From Paecilomyces variotii (taxonomy: Eukaryota): a stretch of DNA of 64,000 nt. Of this stretch, positions 13,481 to 25,127 are shown piece after piece. The DNA is taken from NCBI GenBank assembly GCA_004022145.1, contig RCNU01000002.1; one strand, written 5' to 3'. Each line of letters begins with the position of its first letter. Position 1 is the stretch's first letter. The notes below the pieces were generated by a model that saw nothing but the letters and a program-made list of their open reading frames with translations, did no database searches and was not told the origin of the DNA. Both the position numbers and the translations under genes were made by a program.

Positions 13481-13887
13481 GGCGGGAGCAGAACAGATGT
13501 CGTTTTTCCACAGATACTAGCGCATATTCCACAGACGGTTGAAAGGGCAACTATCGCTCCTCGGGGAGCTCTGCCTCTGCATTTGCTGTTTGAGTTGGTG
13601 GTGGTCTTGTGAATATCTCCCCCGTCACGAAGGAGAGAGCTGGTCAGATTACTGTATCATACAGTCTGGTGAGACACCACGTGATGCCAGATCCCGCTTT
13701 GTGGAGCTAACAAAAGCTTCTTGCGGAGCTTAAGACTACATCTCCGAACTGCTCAATAACATTTCTATATTCCCATTGTTGTTGGCACAACGGGAATTCA
13801 CGCTCGCTTCCGCGTTGGCATTCACTTTTATTTGATTCTAGGATCTGGTCTTAGGTACCCGAGCTTCAATTGAACTGCTCGACCGTC

Positions 13888-14919
13888 ATGGCATCAATCT
13901 ATCCGCGATTAGTTCTCCGAGCGCGTTCCGGCGGCAATATTATTTCATCGAGCGCTTTTCAGCAACGGCGATCATTCCACCCTACTCGACCGTCTCCTTT
14001 CATCAATGAAGCTTTGGATATCTCCTCTAGCTTCCTTCACGGCGTCCACGATGTGACTGGTCTTCCATGGGCCGCTTCTATTCCCTTAACTGCATTCATC
14101 GTTCGAATGACCGTCGCGCTGCCTTTGCAGATCTATACAAGAATACATGCTCGCAGGAATCGTGATCTTTCGCCACTCCTTCTATCCTGGCGCAAAGTCT
14201 ATCAAGATCAGATCATGGAGAAGGCAAAGGAAGAAGGCAGACCTTTACTACCTTTCGAGGCAGATCAAAAGTTAAACGAGGAAATGTCCAAGAGACAGAA
14301 ATCGTTACGCAAGCGCTGGAAAGCCGCGAGGTTTCATGGCATGGCTACCTTCTTACAGATTCCAATTTGGCTTTCTCTGATGGAAAGTCTGCGAGCGATG
14401 TGTGGGAACAATAATGGACTTGTGCCATGGTTCTTGTCACTTATGGAGTCGGAATCTGCCGATCCAAGTCAATATCACCATCTCAATATCGAACAGTCTC
14501 TTGCATCTGAAGGTGCCCTTTGGTTCCCGGATCTATTGGCCGGAGATACAACTGGCATACTTCCCCTGATGCTTGCCGCGACCATTTGGACAAATGTCAG
14601 CGTAGGCTGGAAGACTCCTTCCTTCAAAGAACTTGCGGACTTCCCGCGGACGGAGATGGTCAAGCAGGGTGTTTTGAAGACGATCAAAATGTTCATCCAG
14701 TTCATGGCCATCAATATAGGCATCAATTCCTATATGTCTGGAATGCCTACTGGACTAATGATCTACTGGATCACTAGCGCGAACGTTGCGACACTGCAGA
14801 CCGCATTCCTCAATAAATACATGTTCTCAAAAGCGCCTCTCAAGCCATGGATGAAGATGCATGTCGGTCTCCGGAAGGCCGGGGAAGCCAAGCCCGAGAA
14901 AGCAGCATCCAAAATATGA
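13888..14919 (+). CDS. cox18: Mitochondrial inner-membrane Oxa1/YidC-family insertase, Cox18-like
   Basis: Arg/Ser-rich presequence, HDVTGLPWAASIPLTAFIVR, LQIPIWL, EGALWFPDL, P-x-GLMIYWITS. First ATG at 13888. Confidence 0.8.
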   Translation: MASIYPRLVLRARSGGNIISSSAFQQRRSFHPTRPSPFINEALDISSSFLHGVHDVTGLPWAASIPLTAFIVRMTVALPLQIYTRIHARRNRDLSPLLLSWRKVYQDQIMEKAKEEGRPLLPFEADQKLNEEMSKRQKSLRKRWKAARFHGMATFLQIPIWLSLMESLRAMCGNNNGLVPWFLSLMESESADPSQYHHLNIEQSLASEGALWFPDLLAGDTTGILPLMLAATIWTNVSVGWKTPSFKELADFPRTEMVKQGVLKTIKMFIQFMAINIGINSYMSGMPTGLMIYWITSANVATLQTAFLNKYMFSKAPLKPWMKMHVGLRKAGEAKPEKAASKI

Positions 14920-15049
14920 CTGCCGACTCATCGAAAACTGTGAAAGAAATTACATGACTGGTGTCAAATATGATGCAAAAAAGGGGGAAGAAATTGCCGT
15001 CCTGGACAGAAACACCGAACCTGCTTCTCGCGTGCCCTCGAAGAACGTC

Positions 15050-16200
15050 CAGAAGATCATGCATGCATCCGGGGCGAATTATATTTATGCAGACCGAGCA
15101 TTTCCAACATCTTTTTCCGAGGGCCCCAGACTACCGCGCTTTCTGGACTGGATAGATTCATGTGGAGCTCCTGATTGAGTAGAATTATGATGGACTCAGG
15201 ATCCAGATGCGGGAAAAAGCTTGCCCATATACCCAGATGAATGCCTCGGGGTGAGCTGCCAAGGAAGGTATGAAGGACGGTGTCATCATATCTTCTCCAG
15301 TTCTCTGGATATTAACAGACATTGGTAATCAGCGGCAGTGGTTACGTTCATCTGGCTCATTGCTGTCTAGGGTTTACTCCCCGCTCTAATTTCTAGATGG
15401 ACTCACAGAGAGGTGGATCGCGAGACGAGTGGCAGCTCGTGTGCATTATTCTCATGGAGGGCGTGACTCGAGGGATATGCGGTGGTGAAAAGAGTTCCGT
15501 CCTTTCAGCAGATTTCCGATATGTGCTTTGAGAACGGAGGGTCGAAGTGAAACGTCTCTTGCGCTTTCTGGGTTATGGTTGCGACGGTGCCGCGGTGAGA
15601 CAGGACGAAATACTGAAGATATGTGCTCCACGTATGATCCAGGCACCGTACATCGTCGGAGTGTAGACTGACGTCGATATTGTGCGTCACCTCTTTCTGC
15701 CAATAGCGCCTTCTCGTTGTCCTCTTCGACCCAAAGAATCGAGTTGATGCTCAACCGAAATGATCCATTGGCTGTTCCGCCACTATCACTGTCGGTGACA
15801 TCGTTGATGGCAGCGTCGACTTCGATATGATACCTCAGTGGCCACTCGGTGACTGTTCCGGTGCCTTCATGACTCGCAGTGAATAGGGCACTCTCGTTAT
15901 CCCCGAAGGAGACCCGGATAGCGTCTGTTCGGGAGGTTTAAGAAAGTATTTGATAGGAAACCAGAGGTTCGCCGTGTCTGTATGTGATCTGACGATATCT
16001 GTAGATCCTTGACTGACCTTCACGGCACTTGTAATTATGCAAGCTACTTGTGACAAAATTAAACCACATTTTTCTTTCACACTGTTCAAGATCTGGGTGG
16101 TAGTGTGACCGGAACATAGAGAAAAGAGACTTCATACTTTCTGCATGCTGTCTCTTTATTTTAGAAAGCATTGGTATATATCTTACAAGAGTCATATTTA
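15050..16200 (-). pseudogene. Decayed spliced gene remnant of unknown family
   Basis: Open frame ~15924-15452 (DAIRVSFGDNESALF...LWVEEDNEKALL...). A further exon-like frame (ENWRRYDDTVLH...) follows a GTGAGT...GCTGAT...CAG intron-like segment. Interrupted by stops. Confidence 0.25.
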
Positions 16201-16799
16201 CTCGGTTACTGATTCCAGTTTCTTATTACTATTATGTTACCAGAACCGACCCAACAGTCTCCTTTTCCATTTCTATCCATGTTATCACTTCGGTATAGAA
16301 CGAGTTGACTGGGCCAGGTACACTGAGCTTCTCTAATGCCTAATTTTCTTGTTTGTTATCGCCGCTGCCCCATCCGTGCCGCAAGGTAAGTATCATAGAC
16401 CGCTTTACACGTCTGTATATCCACAGCGCGCCCAATATGTCAGATTCTTTCTTCAGGAATCGCTTGTTACGAGCACTTGACAAGTTTCAGACCCTTCACG
16501 GTAGGATTGTCTTTGAATTGCGAACGAACAGTAATGGAGCCGAATGCCGTATATGTCGACAGATCCTTACCCTGCCCACAAGTTGCCCCCGGGATGAGCT
16601 GAATCGTGAACCGTTAAGCTGGGTCAGTATGACCTTCATATCCTTTGAGCTCAGCACAGTATCAATTATCGAATGAAATCGAGGACAGCAACTCATGTGG
16701 GACGGGCGAACACTCGAATGGAGGCATGTCGTGGCCATCGTTCGCTTCTACCAGACGGGCCATGGCATCTTGGACCAGTTCTCGGTTTTCGAATGATTC

Positions 16800-17440
16800 G
16801 CTAGCAGCTAGAATCAAGAAGGCTCCGATGGCTATGAAAAGTGGCGATTTCGCCTTCATAATTAAGTCAGCCTCAATTCTGTAAGTACAAGATTCGGGGT
16901 TGTATATATTGCTTACCAAGTATATGTCGAAGCTGGTCGTCATCAAACAATTTGCTTCGGAGATCATGCATCATGAAATTTAGCTGCCAGTCTTCGATAG
17001 ATACAAGTGTGCTGTATTTCTCTGAGAAGATCCTCGTGGCAAAGTCCTGCAGCACGCTCGCGATGGAACCCAAGGAAGCAACAGATACCCAGATCAGTGC
17101 AGGCAGGTGATGGGAAGGACCAGAAGTCGCAATGCCACCCTTGTATATACTGGGCCGCAATCCACGGCACCTTGATCTCACTTCTACCAGTAAAGTATCA
17201 TTTACTGTTGGTGATAAAGGTCTTCACCTGCGTCGAGTTTGGCTAAGTATAAGATTTGGCTAGGGAACGCAAAGCAAGAAGATCGAGAGAAGAGAAGTTG
17301 ACCCTGGCATATGCTAAGCATAGGAGATTTTCATGTCTTGATTCTGTTTACAGTCGAAGTGATCCTCCGCATACTTTGAAGTCAGCAGATCTGTTATTCT
17401 TTGGTGATTTCACTCGACATGAGCTCAGTATGCTTTTCCA
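16800..17440 (-). pseudogene. PD-(D/E)XK nuclease-fold gene relic, family B (copy B1)
   Basis: Fragments in the expected order: RSADFKVCG (17392-17366), EIKVPWI (17179-17159), HDLRSKLFDDDQLRHILG, intact 63-nt intron 16916-16854 (GTAAGC...GCTGAC...AAG), then EIATF. Frameshifts and stops lie between the fragments. Confidence 0.55.
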
Positions 17441-17719
17441 GTTCCAACCTTGCAAGAAAAGGAATGTTAGCAGCGTTCAACAATCAATGCGTTATCGTGC
17501 TTCTGATAAACGTCTGACGCATTTGCCTGGCTTACCTGACTGAACTCATGGGACGATGCCGAGCAGTGATAAATCACGGGTGATACTTGGAAAGTGTATC
17601 TCCCAGTCCGCTTGAGAAATACGGTTTCGTTATATGTCGAATAGAGCCCATAGAGGGTCTCGTTATCATTACTTGGCCTATATTCATGGTCTTTATTTGG
17701 CCGTGCGTCCGGTTAGCTG

Positions 17720-18130
17720 ATTTTTTCGAGAAATGGACACAATTAGCGCAGGCACCGTTTGCAATCCCAGGTACTGATACGCAACGACAGTATGGCCCGA
17801 GGGCCATCTTCAAGCCGCGACGCTTCACTTCATCTTTGCTGTGACACGCATCGATTGCTTCCAGGTCACTGCACTGATTATAAGCTGTAATTATTAGCAA
17901 TGATCATAATATTGCGACATATACTCATAAGGTTTGTTGATATCGCCCTTCACGTATATAAGGACGCCATTTTGGTATATCTCCCGTAGGGTACTGCTGT
18001 ACTGCGGTACAGAGATTTTGCTGTATCAGCATTGCTTTAAGCGTTGGACACTGCGTAGCGGTAGTAAGCTCCTCTCAATGCGAGTGAGCGTGACGTTAGC
18101 AGGGGGCATCAGACTCGGGTCTGACATAAC
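17720..18130 (-). pseudogene. DUF3716-like Cys-rich protein relic
   Basis: QCSDLEAIDACHS...GPYCRCVSVPGIANGACANC matches the recalled DUF3716 pattern Q-x-G-x-A-x2-C-x2-C...GPF-x2-CV...GACANC. The second Cys is lost and the upstream frame is broken by stops. Confidence 0.55.
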
Positions 18131-18998
18131 AACGTCGCCGTGACGAACCATTGTGAAGTTGTGGAATGTTCTCGTGAAGTCGTGAAATGCTCGCTCGTGA
18201 TTGCAATTGTTACAAAGAAACAAAGAAACAACAGAAACAACAGATTCACTGCCTGCGAAAAGAAGTGGAAAGGAATCACGTGGTGAAGTTCACAGCCTTA
18301 TATAACTTCACGCCTCGAGCTAGCGCGCTAGCTCGGCTACGCTGAACCTGATTGGCTCGTTCGCATCAGCTCTGCCGCGGAATATGAGATCTGAGAAGAT
18401 AACATCGGTTCCCTCGCAACCCCAGTGCTTTTGTATTGTGTTTCGGGCTATTTGTAAACGGGAGGCTTTGTCGGAATTCGATGTCGCGCTAGACGGACCC
18501 AAGCATGTAGCCATTGCGGGCTTTTTGATAGATATCTGCAGCAAGCTATCTGCGAATCAATACCTGATTTGCCGATTATTGTAAAGGCCTGGTAATATGT
18601 ACAATATAATCCGGATGTCTGAATCTATCGTAAAACTCGATTCTCCACTTATTAACAAACTCTTCTAGCAGAAGTAGTAATGAGAAAGTTATTGACCTTG
18701 TGTTTAGTAGGAATTCTGGGCGAAATAGGGGCGACCGTGGCACCCAGGAGCTTTAGTGTTTAGCAAATTCCTCAATATAATTCAATGAGTTTTCAAAATA
18801 ATAGTTTTGACCTAATAACTTGGCTAGCTTCGCCGGAGTTATATTGAGATCCGTTGTCCAAGGTGGTTTTATCTCGCCAACAATGACGAAGAGACATGGC
18901 CATCGACATCGAGCGGAAACGGTATTTCGGGAAATAATAGTGCAAAATCCAAAAAAAAACTAAGTAGTTACTACTAGTTATTATATGAAGTAATATAA

Positions 18999-19823
18999 TC
19001 AGTAAATGCTACGGACGATGGACTGCATAGATTCGGAACAGAAGACCGAGGACGGATGACGGCAGAGGGAAACGGAAGGAAGAGACTCCCATATTGTGCC
19101 CGGGTTTTTGCTGCATTGGACAGTGCTATCTGCCACTGTCCTCGACGAGGCGCCATAGATAGGTGTGCCGGCTTGGAGGCTCCAAAAGTGAGACCTAGGC
19201 CTAGTCTCTCCAAAAGTAGCTGCAAAGGTATGCAGAGGTTTTTGACAAAGCAGCCAGAGACACCAATGCTTTCTGGTAAGCAACGCATCCCGCATGATCC
19301 CCTCATATCGTTGCATGGTATTTGGCGAAACATAGCCGCGCTGCAACTCTCGCTCGAGGTCTTTGACACGACAGCTTGTGCAGGTGTATGGCGGCTTGTT
19401 GGCTCGGCCCTTGATGCTGATTTGAGCGAAACACACTCCAGGCAACTTCCGACAGCAGGCCATGCAGAAGTACAGCATGTGAATGGCAGATGACCGGTCT
19501 CTTTGCCCGGTCACTATCTCAACGAGTCTAGGGAGGTCTGACTGGAGGTTGTCCTCCCTCAGGTCGTCGAGGATTTCAGATACCTGTCTGCGCTTGTCAC
19601 TGTGTAGGAACAACGGGCCGAGGATCATGAGCATCAGCCCACGACGCCTCCGACACATTGTCCTCTGCATGGCTAAGATATTGGGCAAGAACCATACAGG
19701 AAAGCTCGTCGATGGTCTGGAGAGCAAGTTCAATGAAGGAAGCTCTTTCAATTCTTCCAGGTCTCCTGGCGCAAAAAAATCTGGGACCTCATGGTCCTTA
19801 TGCGTACTGAAACGTGACGCCAT
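18999..19823 (-). CDS. Hypothetical protein with degenerate F-box-like N-terminus and Cys-rich (CxxC...CxxC) region; may be a pseudogene
   Basis: Longest uninterrupted frame in the island (ATG 19823). LLSRP...LPNILAMQRTMCR is F-box-like; YFCMACCRKLPGVCF...CTSC follows. Confidence 0.35.
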   Translation of the reverse strand: MASRFSTHKDHEVPDFFAPGDLEELKELPSLNLLSRPSTSFPVWFLPNILAMQRTMCRRRRGLMLMILGPLFLHSDKRRQVSEILDDLREDNLQSDLPRLVEIVTGQRDRSSAIHMLYFCMACCRKLPGVCFAQISIKGRANKPPYTCTSCRVKDLERELQRGYVSPNTMQRYEGIMRDALLTRKHWCLWLLCQKPLHTFAATFGETRPRSHFWSLQAGTPIYGASSRTVADSTVQCSKNPGTIWESLPSVSLCRHPSSVFCSESMQSIVRSIY

Positions 19824-20639
19824 CCGATTCTGTTGTCCGGCGAAAAATGATGTTGTGCAACAGTGACCGAGTCGTGTAAAATAAATTAGTGGAATGAGCA
19901 GGCCCAGACGCAACGTGGGCTCTGGTTCCACTAAGCGTCACTCTTTTCCGATATATATTAATACCCAGCTTTTGTAGCCTTCCTATACATCATTGGAAAT
20001 AAGTATCAATAAGTTATACTTATGTATAGAGTGAAAGCGAAACATACATCGGGATCAACACCGATCTCCCAATAATCAAACGCTTGCTGGTTGTCTTTCC
20101 CTGGCACGATTGTGCTTCTCTGTTCCGCTGGATCGCTATCATTTCACTTAAAGATTTACCTCATGGCGGTAGACAGCTTCTTGAGACATCGAGGTGGACG
20201 CTTTGATCCAAGCGACCATTTGCTCGGTTCTTTTGCATCCGCATCATGAACGGACGACGACGGAGTCGGAGATGGCGAGGGTTCTGTCGCGGCATCGTTG
20301 ATAATGCCCGGGGGAGTGGTATCGGCAAGCTCTGGACGTGGTCAGTTACGCTACCAGTCAAGACAAGGAAGTACATACCGGAGTCACTGGAGACGAAAGA
20401 CGGGATGACGCTGCGACGCGGGTGGTCTGACAGTATCCTGATTCTGTATTGTATATAGTGATCGTCCTTCGTGGAGTCAAACGAGTTTGGACAGTGGTCA
20501 TTTGGAAATTCATAATGCTTCAATGGCTCTGCGCTTCTGCGGGCCCAGAATATTACCCGGGCCTCGAGATCTGAGGTTATCTTTTGACTGTAAAACGATG
20601 TAGTAGGAGTGCAGTTTTCGAAGATATCTGCGGGAGAGT

Positions 20640-21200
20640 CCAGCTCTTCCAGACAATCATACAAGGATATCTGCTGACTCGTGGTCGCAATGCCTCCCAG
20701 CTATTCGGCAGCTGTCGATCTTGCTCCTGATTTGTTCACCTTGTATTTTCGTCAAATAGATGGTTTCATTGTACGTTGATAAGAAACCATATTTGACACC
20801 TGCGCAGAACATGTATATCCCGATCGGATCCATTATTGTTTGAAGGAGATTATGAGCTCAAGGCGTCTTGAACTCTCCCACAAGAAGTGCTTGCGTCCAG
20901 TTGATGTTAATTCTTGCAAGGACAATGATATCCCGCCGCACACTCTTGTCGTCGATCGGCCAGAGCTAAACTTGCGCGTAATCGTCATTCGATTACGCAT
21001 CCATATATATTGTTGTATAGGTTGAACAGGTTTGGGCGACTGCCCAACGTAACCTGTCCCTGAAATGGCACCGTGACCCCCCCTGGGCGTTCCATTATCT
21101 GCAGAAATAGCATTGCCAGCCTTGTTTTCCGCCCAGAACTTGACGGCAAAATTTCCCAGCTTCATGAAAGCCCGCATGTACCTTGCGTTCCTCGTATTTT
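20640..21200 (-). pseudogene. PD-(D/E)XK nuclease-fold gene relic, family B (copy B3, best preserved)
   Basis: One frame reads RDIIVLARININWTQALLVGEFKTP*AHNLLQTIMDPIGIYMFCAGVKYGFLSTYNETIYL (~20936-20753), with TGA in place of the conserved Trp. Upstream GHGAISG...VGQ...KFSSG and downstream ISLYDCL are in shifted frames. Confidence 0.7.
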
Positions 21201-21399
21201 CGACATAACTCAGGTGTCCCCTGTGAGCTGGCCAATATGTTGTAGGGTCAATTGCTCGGTTATCGATATATACCAGCCAATGCGGAAGAGAGGCTGGGTA
21301 TGGATATCACCCAGAAATTCGCTCTTGCAGATTCCCAAAATTGATCTCGGAAAGAAGGGGGGTGGATATAAGGGCCGTAAGAACCGGTTATTGGAGAGG

Positions 21400-21900
21400 T
21401 AGAGCGAGTTCCGAGCATTGTATGCGAATATCGCAACCATGACCATGTTCAAGTCAACTGACAACGTTGAGTTCCACGGGCCGAATTGTCTCGTCGTCAT
21501 GAAGCCAGCTCTTGCTATGCTACCGCCCTTTATATATCTCGCCCAATTTCCCATCATAGCAGGAAAGGTGATGTAGGATTCACTCCTATCCTGGAATAGG
21601 AGGATCTGCCTTTCTTCGTTAGCTCCTACTGCAGTTTCGATTCCAGGACATCTCTATACTTACTGAGGGATTCCTTGATCCATGCCACTATCTGGGAGAC
21701 CTCCTGCATCTCCACTTGAGGGCAATGTCTATTTTCAGTGCCGACCTCACATTCATGGATGGAGTTTCATCTTCCGGAATTGACATCTTGTCTTGTAACT
21801 GACCATCTGTCTGGGCCACGTATTGCCCAGCGCCCCCAAATTTGGCAACTAGACAAATCCTAGTAGACCTCCACTTGTGGATAGGGGCAATTGTCGTCTT
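21400..21900 (-). pseudogene. PD-(D/E)XK nuclease-fold gene relic, family A (copy A2)
   Basis: KWRSTRICLVAKFGGAGQYVAQTDGQL, frameshift, IHECE...QVEMQEVSQIVAWIKE, 54-nt intron 21663-21610 (GTAAGT...GCTAAC...AAG), then QILLFQDRSESYITF...GFMTTRQFGPW. Confidence 0.65.
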
Positions 21901-21929
21901 GCAGGGACTTGAAAACCCTTCCAGCATAG

Positions 21930-22531
21930 TCACAGACACGACTATGAAATGACAGCCATTTGTAGTCATCTCAGCCAAGACTCGACAATGTCCAGGATTA
22001 TCTCTCGCTCCCGTACCTTCGATATATATATATATATATATAGAATCTTCTTCAGCAGGACAATCCTAGAGAAGGAAATAAAGAGTTTGTTTCCTGCCGA
22101 TGCAAATGGTATCTTTCCATTGACAAATCCGAGAGGTGTGAACGGAAGAGGCGGCGTGACCCTTGCTGCCCAGTCGTCTTCCCGGATATTCGTTTTCAGG
22201 TCGAAGCAGATTTTCAGGGTGTCACTATCATCATTCTCGCTGGTTCTTGTCGCCGATATGTGAATGGATCTCCAGGACTAAAATCGCACATAATGCCTTC
22301 TGATTGAAAAATGGCCGCCATTATCTTACTAACGTTGTTGTTAAATCGGCCTTGCATATCGCCTTCGTCAGAACAGGTGTAAAGCTCATTGATAATACGT
22401 TTTGCGTTCAGGAAACCAGCAGGGTGGTAACCTAGAATCGCATTGTTGAAGTTGGCATTATCTCCGAGACAGTTGTAATTTCCTGCTCTTGGAATTGTCA
22501 TAGTCCGCAGACTAATATCCCGGGCCAGCAA
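21930..22531 (-). pseudogene. PD-(D/E)XK nuclease-fold gene relic, family B (copy B2)
   Basis: DEGDMQGRFNNNVSKIMAAIF...CDFSPG, frameshift, LKICFDLKT (aligns with LLVGEFKT of B3), later LAEMTTNGCHFIVVS (aligns with YM...YGFLST). Interrupted by an (AT)n tract. Confidence 0.45.
22022..22042. repeat. (AT)n microsatellite
   Basis: About 10 AT units directly visible. Confidence 0.9.
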
Positions 22532-23069
22532 TTGGCGGCCCCTTGATGTTTCCTGCGGACCGACAACCGATATATATGTTCATGAATATATATAGAACAA
22601 TAACCAGAAGAGCTCACGATCCATAGACTCAAGTCAACCTCTTCATGGCAGGATGCACAAAGAGGAATGGCCTTCGAGATGGACTTATACGAGACAGTAT
22701 ACAGCCTGGCCTGCTCCCATATGTCTGTATATAACTTGTCAGCTCATTTCTCGATAGATAGAAGAGGTGAAGTCATGAGATTATCGGCCATACATTTGGG
22801 GGGCATCGAGACTCTGCAGCCACGTAATTGAAACACTCTGGATTTTCTGCAGCCCCTTCCCATGATCCTGTCCAACTCTCCATGAGCCTAGAGATCATTA
22901 ATCGCACGGTAATAGTTTTGTACAACCGTGTATTAAAATCTAGCAGGTATATATCAGTCATTCTGGACCTTCAAAATGGATAGGGCATATGTACCATATT
23001 GCAACAAGTTTTTAACATTGGACAACGCCCAAGGAATCTGATGAATCGCCTTCTGGTGGCAGCGCCCAA

Positions 23070-23570
23070 CGGCAGTGCACCGATGGCAGGGCATCAGGTC
23101 TCCCAATGACTTTGCACTCAATAAGTGCGTTTACCTTCTCTGGTTCCCCTCGGATGAAGAGGTCTCCGTCCGAAATGGCTGTATAGCCGACCTGGCCAAA
23201 ATTGGCTCTCATCCGGAACCTCGTAGGAACCCAGTGAAGACTGTAAGAAATGCAGTCTGTTATAGCGAAGAACGTCAGTCACATTTTCTAAGGAGCAACA
23301 TGAAGCAGGGTAGATTGAGCTTGGAGACGCTGCATGGAGTAGGATAACTTACCACTATGGGCCGAGGCCGCCATCAGTCTCAAAAAGGACATTCCATGGT
23401 ATGCAAACGCATTCCACATATCAGCCTCCAACATCCGAGTGGCCTCATCAAGGGCAACAACCTCAGATTTTGTATTTGTTCTGAATAGCTCCCTCCCCAG
23501 CTCAAGTCGGACCGATCGAAATCCGACAGTATATCAAGACGCCACCTTGCATGCGTGGATATACATAGAC
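23070..23570 (-). pseudogene. PD-(D/E)XK nuclease-fold gene relic, family A (copy A1)
   Basis: HWVPTRFRMRANFGQVGYTAISDGDLFIRGEPEKVNALIECK (SDG...ExK signature) is colinear with copy A2. Truncated after the ExK motif. Confidence 0.6.
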
Positions 23571-25127
23571 GCGAGAGATTTCCCGAGTACCCTGCTTCAA
23601 TGACGAGGTGCGGCAGTATAAAAAAGAGATAGGACAGAGAGAATGACAATGTTGGAAAATAAAAACCGATAGCTCGGTGCTGAATCATGTAAAGAAGAGT
23701 ATATATAAGTTCTTGAATGAGCTGATTGAAAAGGATAATCCTGACTTCCTGCCTCGCGCCTCTCTGCCTCAAGCCTCGACTGTGGTTCAGGAGATAGCGG
23801 TTGGATAGAAGCCAACCCATAGCGTTCTGGGGGGGAGGGGGAAGGGGGACGACTCTCTCCTCCTCCTCCTCCCCCCATATATACGATAAAGAAGAAGAAC
23901 AAATATAGGATAGGGATAGGAATAGGAAATTGGTAAGTTCTCGAAATTGGATGATAAAACTGAACATTTCTCGGGAGTACTGTCGAGGAATATATATACG
24001 CAACCAAGGACACACCACCACGAGTATGAAAAGAGAGAATAAAGAACAGATCCAATTGACATATGACCTATCAACTGCGCATTGGGAGCGATTAGCATAA
24101 TCTTCTTCCGTTACCAGTGTCTCTGTCGGCATGTTTTCCCTGTAGGGACGGCGAACTAGCGTTGTGACACCTAGCAAGCATCTATAACAAAGATTTACCA
24201 GGTCCATAGACCAATAGCGTTACGGGCCTTTATGGAAGATCCTTTCAGACAAGTTAGACATGCATGCAGCATGCATCCAGATTCCAACATGAGAAGATCT
24301 ATGAAAGACCATAGCCACCAGAGTCTGCAGGCTTGGAGCTGCTCAAAGGGTGGTAAAAGAAGAGGAGATAGTGGATATGGGAGGTCAATGGAGGGGATAA
24401 ATATACCCTTGAAAAAGAGGGGAAAGAGGGGGAATGATTGAATGAAGGGAATCTCCTACCCCATGTTTCATTCCCTTCAGGTGGGAAAGATGGACCATGA
24501 ATGTGTGCTTTCTGCGGAATTGTTAATGATGACCTACGAGTGCTCTCCAGACCAGTAGGGAGAGTCCCTCGCGATTAGGCATACTATGGGTGGTATCGGC
24601 ACCGCACAGTGAAGGGCAACCCGCAATCCTTTGCTTCCTTGGAAGGCAGCTAGATTTTCGATAGCCAACAGATGATTGTCTAGAACTTGCAGTAAGTGGA
24701 GATCTATGTAGTCCTCGCCAATCTAGCAAGGATGAGGGATATGGTATAAAGAATCCGATCGGCAGCCCTTTCAAACATTCCCTCAACTTTACGGGCCTTT
24801 GCATACAGAAATGACTGTCATTTCCAAATTTCAGGATCCTTGTTGTCTATGGGATCATTTAACGATAGTCGATGCAAGATGAACAAATTTTATGACGAAA
24901 TGCAGCACGTACCCGCCGTACGTACTAGCATGTCTCAGGCTATGTTACAAGATGCAGCCTGGCTGCTGTCACCCGCTTCCAGGACAAAGGCCTGGAAAAA
25001 GGTGGAAGAATCATTTCGCAAATCGTTAAGTAGCGAAGTGCAATTACCCAAGTCCTTATCCTTGTTTATGGGTCCTACCAATATAGCACAAGAGATGAAA
25101 CGGATGCAACAATCCTCTGCCCACCGT

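Follow-up and report, generated by a model that had tools for sequence, protein, structure and literature searches.

A transcribed and spliced mosaic of same-strand gene pieces in Paecilomyces variotii, and a candidate two-gene unit among its donors

Introduction

The locus reported here can be set against several described systems. The SPOK drivers of Podospora combine a nuclease and a resistance kinase in one protein, and their nuclease domain kills via DNA damage (PMC9972908). In Wolbachia, a nuclease and a cognate-specific partner are linked as CinA-CinB, with many types and a fixed gene order, and both toxicity and rescue have been shown (PMC8787490). Maize Helitrons join dead pieces from more than one gene into spliced transcripts, which differ from line to line (PMC4528327).

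The window, that is, the whole stretch of DNA analysed, comprises 64,000 nt of contig RCNU01000002.1 of Paecilomyces variotii (assembly GCA_004022145.1), in which a sequence-only reading had proposed an alternating A-B-A-B tandem array of two gene families. Restriction-endonuclease-fold and HNH genes of fungi are reportedly found in variable, recombining loci among the Crinkler/CR-REase effectors described by Zhang et al. in 2016, and CRN effectors are defined by an N-terminal Crinkler header. In unistrand piRNA clusters such as flamenco, a single long transcript runs across nested remains of selfish elements, which are antisense to it; to our knowledge, fungi lack PIWI.

Results

A 7.5-kb mosaic of gene pieces

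The peptides quoted in the sequence-only reading were all found in place on the minus strand, and the four relics that it had put at 20640..23570 are real and lie inside that interval. The interval itself is much too narrow: genome DNA searches and alignments to fetched loci showed a block of internal gene pieces, with their introns kept, that runs along the minus strand from 16.3 to 23.8 kb (7.5 kb); an OXA1/COX18-family gene (13855-14919) and a CWH43/PGAP2IP gene, 10 kb apart, lie on either side of it. Donors were searched for in the same 30.1-Mb genome, one gene of which (P0058) has 99.6% identity to a P. variotii protein, and the comparison loci (L numbers) are 10-kb cuts fetched round the matches. 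None of the 136 six-frame segments of 14.9-25.3 kb reached a Pfam curated cut-off, and intact paralogues were then sought in the same genome (A in L004, B in L009). The pieces are as follows, with the evidence in brackets; X3 is one of the runs compared below.

16258..23787, minus strand: whole transcribed, spliced mosaic of gene fragments (X3 contigs, eight minus-strand introns removed)
23256..23353, minus strand: spliced intron in a piece without assigned donor, upstream of A1 (X3 contigs)
23063..23263, minus strand: A1, internal piece of a family-A (predicted nuclease) gene, D-G and E-C-K kept (alignment to intact A)
22724..22995, minus strand: piece or pieces without donor, two spliced introns at 22939-22995 and 22724-22794 (X3 contigs)
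22259..22462, minus strand: B-N (earlier called B2), family-B piece, aa 62-124 of protein P0171, open frame (protein alignment)
21891..21963, minus strand: F-N, first part of the gene F piece, donor-like copy in L014 (alignment to fetched loci)
about 21411..21890 (as far as 21939), minus strand: A2, frameshifted family-A piece, spliced intron 21609-21663, catalytic K lost (protein alignment, X3)
21398..21455, minus strand: F-C, latter part of the gene F piece (alignment to fetched loci)
20732..20982, minus strand: B-C (earlier called B3), family-B piece, matches P0171 at aa 120-208, carries a frameshift, a stop and a deletion across the intron (protein alignment)
20240..20426, minus strand: E-N, first part of the gene E piece, spliced intron 20331-20379 (alignment, X3)
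19972..20095, minus strand: HNH endonuclease piece, 93% to L027, spliced intron 19981-20047 (alignment, X3)
19738..19823, minus strand: A3, N-terminal piece of a third family-A gene (match, E 2e-6)
19437..19674, minus strand: gene G piece, 66% to L030 (alignment)
19089..19267, minus strand: B4 piece 1, from a second B subfamily whose sequence is unbroken in L026 (alignment)
18771..18884, minus strand: B4 piece 2 (alignment)
17722..18360, minus strand: DUF3716-like piece (below Pfam cut-off), missing from strains X4 and X5 (alignment, strain comparison)
17446..17687, minus strand: B4 piece 3, spliced intron 17446-17534 (alignment, X3)
16842..16968, minus strand: B5, short family-B piece round spliced intron 16852-16916 (alignment, X3)
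16343..16562, minus strand: E-C, latter part of the gene E piece, separated from E-N by 3.7 kb (alignment)

The pieces are 62-93% identical to their best present copies in the genome, and for roughly a third of the block, 22724..22995 included, genome searches turned up no donor. The identified donors are all multi-copy accessory or nuclease-type genes, with no housekeeping gene among them, and the L027 ORF, parent of the HNH piece, matches Pfam HNH_2 (E 4e-9). A guess that 23354-23533 comes from a helicase (AAA_11) received no support from Pfam. A 312-codon open frame on the minus strand (19002-19937), which crosses the A3, G and B4 pieces and has a 52-nt gap in X5, is likely due to chance.

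The A and B pieces are nested, not tandem

A1 and A2 are, as had been proposed, paralogous relics of one core (A1, at 23233-23063, 67% to L004, E 3e-18; A2 to P0167, E 2e-13), and because both match intact A over the same core, they are two separate relics. A protein homolog search with the A1 piece alone gave no match. The catalytic residues are kept in A1, and the lysine is absent from A2. The two B pieces had been taken for two copies of one region, with DEGDMQGRF paired to GAISG and ICFDLKT to VGEFKT; tblastn did not support that pairing, and against full-length P0171 the first piece covers aa 62-124 (E 7e-29, 78% identity) and the second aa 120-208 (E 6e-21, 62-73%). The B pieces are complementary, a tandem repeat at the DNA level is absent, and the A-B-A-B tandem array does not hold.

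What lies between B-N and B-C is A2, placed inside the gene F piece that is split at 21891/21455, together with sequence without assigned donor. Since A2 is flanked by the two F parts and both of these lie between the B halves, the order is A1, then B[F[A2]F]B, and the A-B-A-B appearance results from nesting of the pieces. In L014 the two F parts that flank A2 are only 150 nt apart. The B halves overlap by about 15-40 nt, where only 16 of 22 positions are identical when read in register, and hence the halves possibly come from two donors; one split B piece is nevertheless the likelier origin in our judgement, and whether there was one donor or two, B-N and B-C are not tandem copies. The B piece in L013 ends at almost the same codon as B-N of the window.

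Strand bias and nesting, in the window and elsewhere

Two nests are present in the window, B[F[A2]F]B and E[...B4 in three pieces...]E, and donor-like copies of F, E and B4, which are split here, are contiguous elsewhere. The minus strand carries all 8 inserts whose sense is independently known (p 0.008), a count restricted to these eight because the sense of E and G was assumed from open frames, and also all 11 protein-library matches in the block. A substitution-based strand test, which is unreliable on short pieces, called 15 of 26 alignments minus and 11 plus, with known-minus pieces among the plus. Moreover, pieces are co-oriented at all six other fetched loci with two unrelated families, among them L015 with the reverse nest, A[B]A.

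Pieces from A, B, HNH, E and G were also seen combined on one strand, as further mosaics, in L013 (3941-6083), L015 (4270-5337), L019, L021 (4210-5100), L024 and L030. Three short repeats of 100-320 nt lie near A and B loci (L014 5440-5634, L018 9122-9335 and L013 7790-8111), have matches in L017, L025, L030, L072, L079, L081, L083-L085, L089 and L090, and are possibly small mobile elements or shared promoters. L029 and L031, which lie close to contig ends, are degenerate and rich in repeats and show DUF3716-like matches.

As to how the pieces arose, the retained introns speak against an origin from spliced mRNA, which was rejected. RIP, judged by its usual thresholds, was also rejected, as TpA/ApT (0.63-0.69) and (CpA+TpG)/(ApC+GpT) (1.33-1.46) are similar to those of the window.

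The block is transcribed, spliced and variable between strains

Six runs contain at least half of the sampled words, and X3, X4, X5 and X12, of the 24 listed, were compared. Contigs of X3 span 16258-19739, about 19740-21575 and 21904-23787, and from these eight distinct introns are removed, all on the minus strand (read from 15 of 18 joints). As the eight introns read CT..AC on the plus strand, the RNA is that of the minus strand and is sense to the pieces. X3 coverage is nearly nil at 24008-24841, consistent with RNA, and one continuous RNA across the block is likely. After splicing, the longest ATG frame has 274 codons and runs through unrelated pieces. Many donors are apparently transcribed in X3 as well.

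The block is present in all four runs, and its flanks are common to all of them. X4 and X5, which come from a single study, lack the 637-nt piece at 17722-18360 and show an empty site there; no target-site duplication was seen at this piece, the joint having at most 2 shared letters, with one 6-nt word nearby. In X12, a different haplotype, 654 other letters replace 16345-18360, and the A1-B-F-A2-B part is present in X4, X5 and X12. The distal flank at 15400-16230 has many substitutions and indels in X4 and X12 and no match elsewhere in the genome.

A block that is transcribed and spliced throughout, occurs in 4 of 4 compared runs and is still gaining pieces might be thought a selected RNA-silencing trap, in which a long single-strand transcript gathers fragments of selfish nuclease genes and gives rise to small RNAs directed at those genes, in the manner of a unistrand piRNA cluster, and the restriction of donors to multi-copy accessory or nuclease-type genes would suit such a trap. 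The pieces are, however, sense and not antisense to the transcript, their identity of 62-93% to the best present copies is poor for silencing, and many donors are apparently transcribed in X3. We regard this explanation as unlikely. The joining of intron-bearing, same-strand pieces in spliced RNA also recalls maize Helitron transcripts (PMC4528327), and the block could accordingly be what decay has left of the inside of a Helitron- or Pack-MULE-like transposon, one that captured genes and once made chimeric spliced transcripts. Against this, no hairpin-plus-CTRR end was found in 14900-16400, with two weak hairpins only on the other side, the block ends are not repeated in the genome, and capture continues internally and nests between flanks common to all compared strains. 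Old Helitron ends may have decayed, and yet we consider a transposon interior improbable.

Family A has a predicted nuclease fold, which the motifs of family B would also fit

A PD-(D/E)XK fold had been claimed for both families. For A it is borne out by a confident model and restriction-endonuclease-type matches; for B the motifs alone were found, and the fold call is plausible. The A model (P0002, about 320 aa) has pLDDT 92, and VIA-align matched it to DrdV (Z 9.3, rmsd 3.0, 141 aligned) and BpuSI (Z 8.8, rmsd 3.7, 155 aligned), below two mitoribosomal chains (Z 11) that fill the top two rows; Foldseek gave no match at E ≤ 0.001. E149, D195, E212 and K214 are kept in at least 90% of 122 A sequences and in 9 of 9 open-frame genomic copies. 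From model and residues together, family A is predicted to belong to the PD-(D/E)XK nuclease superfamily, with the restriction-endonuclease core fold. It has 581 representatives at E ≤ 0.001, and of 20 representatives checked, those with a name come from ascomycetes, for the most part from Aspergillus, Penicillium and Paecilomyces. Pfam found no common family among the 122 members, and no intact A exon reached a cut-off.

Open frames are kept in 9 of the 12 full-length A copies of the genome. P0002, from an annotated P. variotii cluster, is only 67-70% identical to the closest A gene of this genome (L016), a gap which hints at deeply diverged alleles or paralogue turnover between strains. In L082 (4208-5349) a family-A relic has internal tandem duplications of about 215 nt, and at L074 4231-4451, next to a frameshifted C gene, the 3′ end of the neighbouring A gene is repeated in inverted orientation, an arrangement that could give hairpin RNA.

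In P0171, the 278-aa B protein, the PD, GEFK and QxxxY motifs were read directly and are also seen in the family alignment. One B exon has a weak HSDR_N_2 match (E 0.026), and an Atlas cluster with SPOK2_N (76% of members) came up for B at a score of 0.83, to be taken as a lead only. The model of B exon 1 has pLDDT 34, a PDB sequence search with B gave no match, and Pfam gave none at cut-off for P0171 and the intact B exons. Judged by its motifs, B is plausibly a PD-(D/E)XK nuclease. Profile comparisons of A with B and of A with C, the family described below, were not significant, and C as an inactive copy of the A fold thus found no support.

Intact A genes accompany C, not B

The sequence-only reading had explained the window by a cassette of two genes, A and B, duplicated or re-inserted in tandem, and absence of linkage between intact A and B had been taken beforehand as refuting it. 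In the linkage set, which consists of 10-kb cuts round A, B and C matches of single-protein searches and gives counts that are lower bounds, 0 of 12 full-length A genes had a whole B gene in the cut, and 7 of 12 B-bearing cuts had no A match at all. In L015, a piece of a B exon lies within A, and there is no whole B gene. Metagenome locus scans with P0006 and P0007 returned 128 and 180 pattern matches, none of which was confirmed. A and B pieces do occur together on one strand at five loci (the window, L013, L015, L019 and L021), but all five are broken mosaics, and with complementary B pieces and no tandem DNA repeat in the window, a tandem A+B cassette has become very improbable. The A+B module is refuted in the P. 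variotii genome analysed.

A different neighbour, family C, which is absent from the window, was found in the 10-kb cuts of 12 of 12 full-length A genes; of the A fragments, 2 of 14 had it (Fisher p 1e-5), and the rate expected by chance is about 0.8% per cut. The pairs are placed as follows.

A+C loci: L016, L072-L081 and L015, on contigs C1, C5, C6, C9, C12, C13, C23, C34, C45, C56 and C86, each pair flanked by a different set of housekeeping genes

Loci selected through C alone had no A in 11 of 11 cases (one of the eleven scored as C in part of the searches only), hence C is not A-specific cargo. Identities of A and C are correlated (Mantel r 0.84, p 5e-5, over 11 loci, of which kin loci are not independent, five sister pairs carrying the signal), and A and C have the same nearest neighbour in 10 of the 11 loci, with five reciprocal sister pairs. 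Since 4 of these 5 sister pairs differ in the order or orientation of A and C, the linkage outlasts rearrangement. The sole cross-species support is P0057, an Aspergillus neoniger model with a C domain (E 5e-15) ahead of the A domain, which may be a fusion or a merged annotation. Pfam gave no match for C, and a complex prediction without alignments for A (P0119) and two C exons scored 0.00, a value that speaks neither for nor against an A-C complex.

The toxin-antidote idea that had been attached to A and B survives only with C as the partner of A. From linkage and co-diversification, and by analogy with SPOK and CinA-CinB, from which the DNase toxicity of A and the antidote role of C are inferred, A+C is a probable two-gene nuclease toxin-antidote family. 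More tentatively, and with less than even confidence, it may be an undescribed, dispersed DNase toxin-antidote system of Eurotiales, a split and kinase-free counterpart of SPOK with about a dozen diverged cognate pairs per genome, whose pieces are collected by same-strand mosaics. It is also quite possible, if not what we would expect, that nothing but joint duplication as a single block links A and C, or that the two make up a neutral, non-toxic unit of enzyme and cofactor. Co-duplication alone yields congruent A and C trees, C is common on its own, and one of the nine open-frame A genes (L074) stands beside a frameshifted C. Block copying alone does not, however, explain a changed order or orientation in 4 of 5 sister pairs, and the A+C linkage is lost mostly where A is fragmentary. 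A literature search, largely confined to papers outside subscription, found no account of the A+C pair; the supplement of the CR-effector paper (Zhang et al. 2016) may already list these families.

Discussion

The reading towards which we lean, as somewhat more probable than not, takes the stretch for part of a transcribed and spliced block of dead gene pieces, all on one strand, that likely grew by repeated capture of DNA during break repair, and takes A+C and not A+B for the likely working unit of its family-A donors. Internal fragments of dispersed nuclease-type genes would have been captured repeatedly at the DNA level while breaks were repaired, presumably by templated insertion or ectopic template switching, and every new piece would have landed within older ones. 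Plain filler DNA is not expected on one strand only, so that the strand bias requires an extra step, which may be sense-to-sense strand invasion among similar mosaic loci or selection against antisense RNA. The mosaic itself would have no protein function and is most probably debris, unusual but inert. The family-A donors are predicted PD-(D/E)XK DNases whose unit is likely A with an adjacent C, as toxin and antidote, a suggestion based on linkage and co-diversification only.

If A+C is indeed a toxin-antidote pair, the 'hypothetical proteins' of Aspergillus, Penicillium and Paecilomyces would hide many unrecognised selfish or incompatibility loci. The mosaic, for its part, is a transcribed locus to which gene pieces are added within a species and without transposon ends, and its strand bias goes beyond what ordinary filler DNA would account for.

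Compared with Crinkler-type effectors, no Crinkler header was found by Pfam in the 122 A members or in P0171, and no secretion domain was seen. Like a unistrand piRNA cluster, the mosaic probably has one long transcript over nested fragments; it differs in that pieces and spliced introns share the minus strand, i.e. the pieces are in sense. With maize Helitrons (PMC4528327) it has in common that remnants of several genes are joined in spliced RNA and that this differs from line to line, whereas no Helitron ends were found here, the donors are accessory nuclease-type genes, and the pieces are nested. CinA-CinB offers a model of how A+C might work, as a linked nuclease and cognate-specific partner with many types; that system is bacterial, with fixed gene order and with toxicity and rescue shown, whereas A+C has variable order and orientation and is known from linkage and co-diversification (PMC8787490). 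SPOK has a PD-(D/E)XK core, as is predicted for A, and the PD, ExK and QxxxY motifs of SPOK3 are also found in B (PMC6660238). A single SPOK protein contains both the nuclease and the resistance kinase, whereas A (about 320 aa) and B (278 aa) are without a kinase domain, and the constant neighbour of A is the separate gene C.
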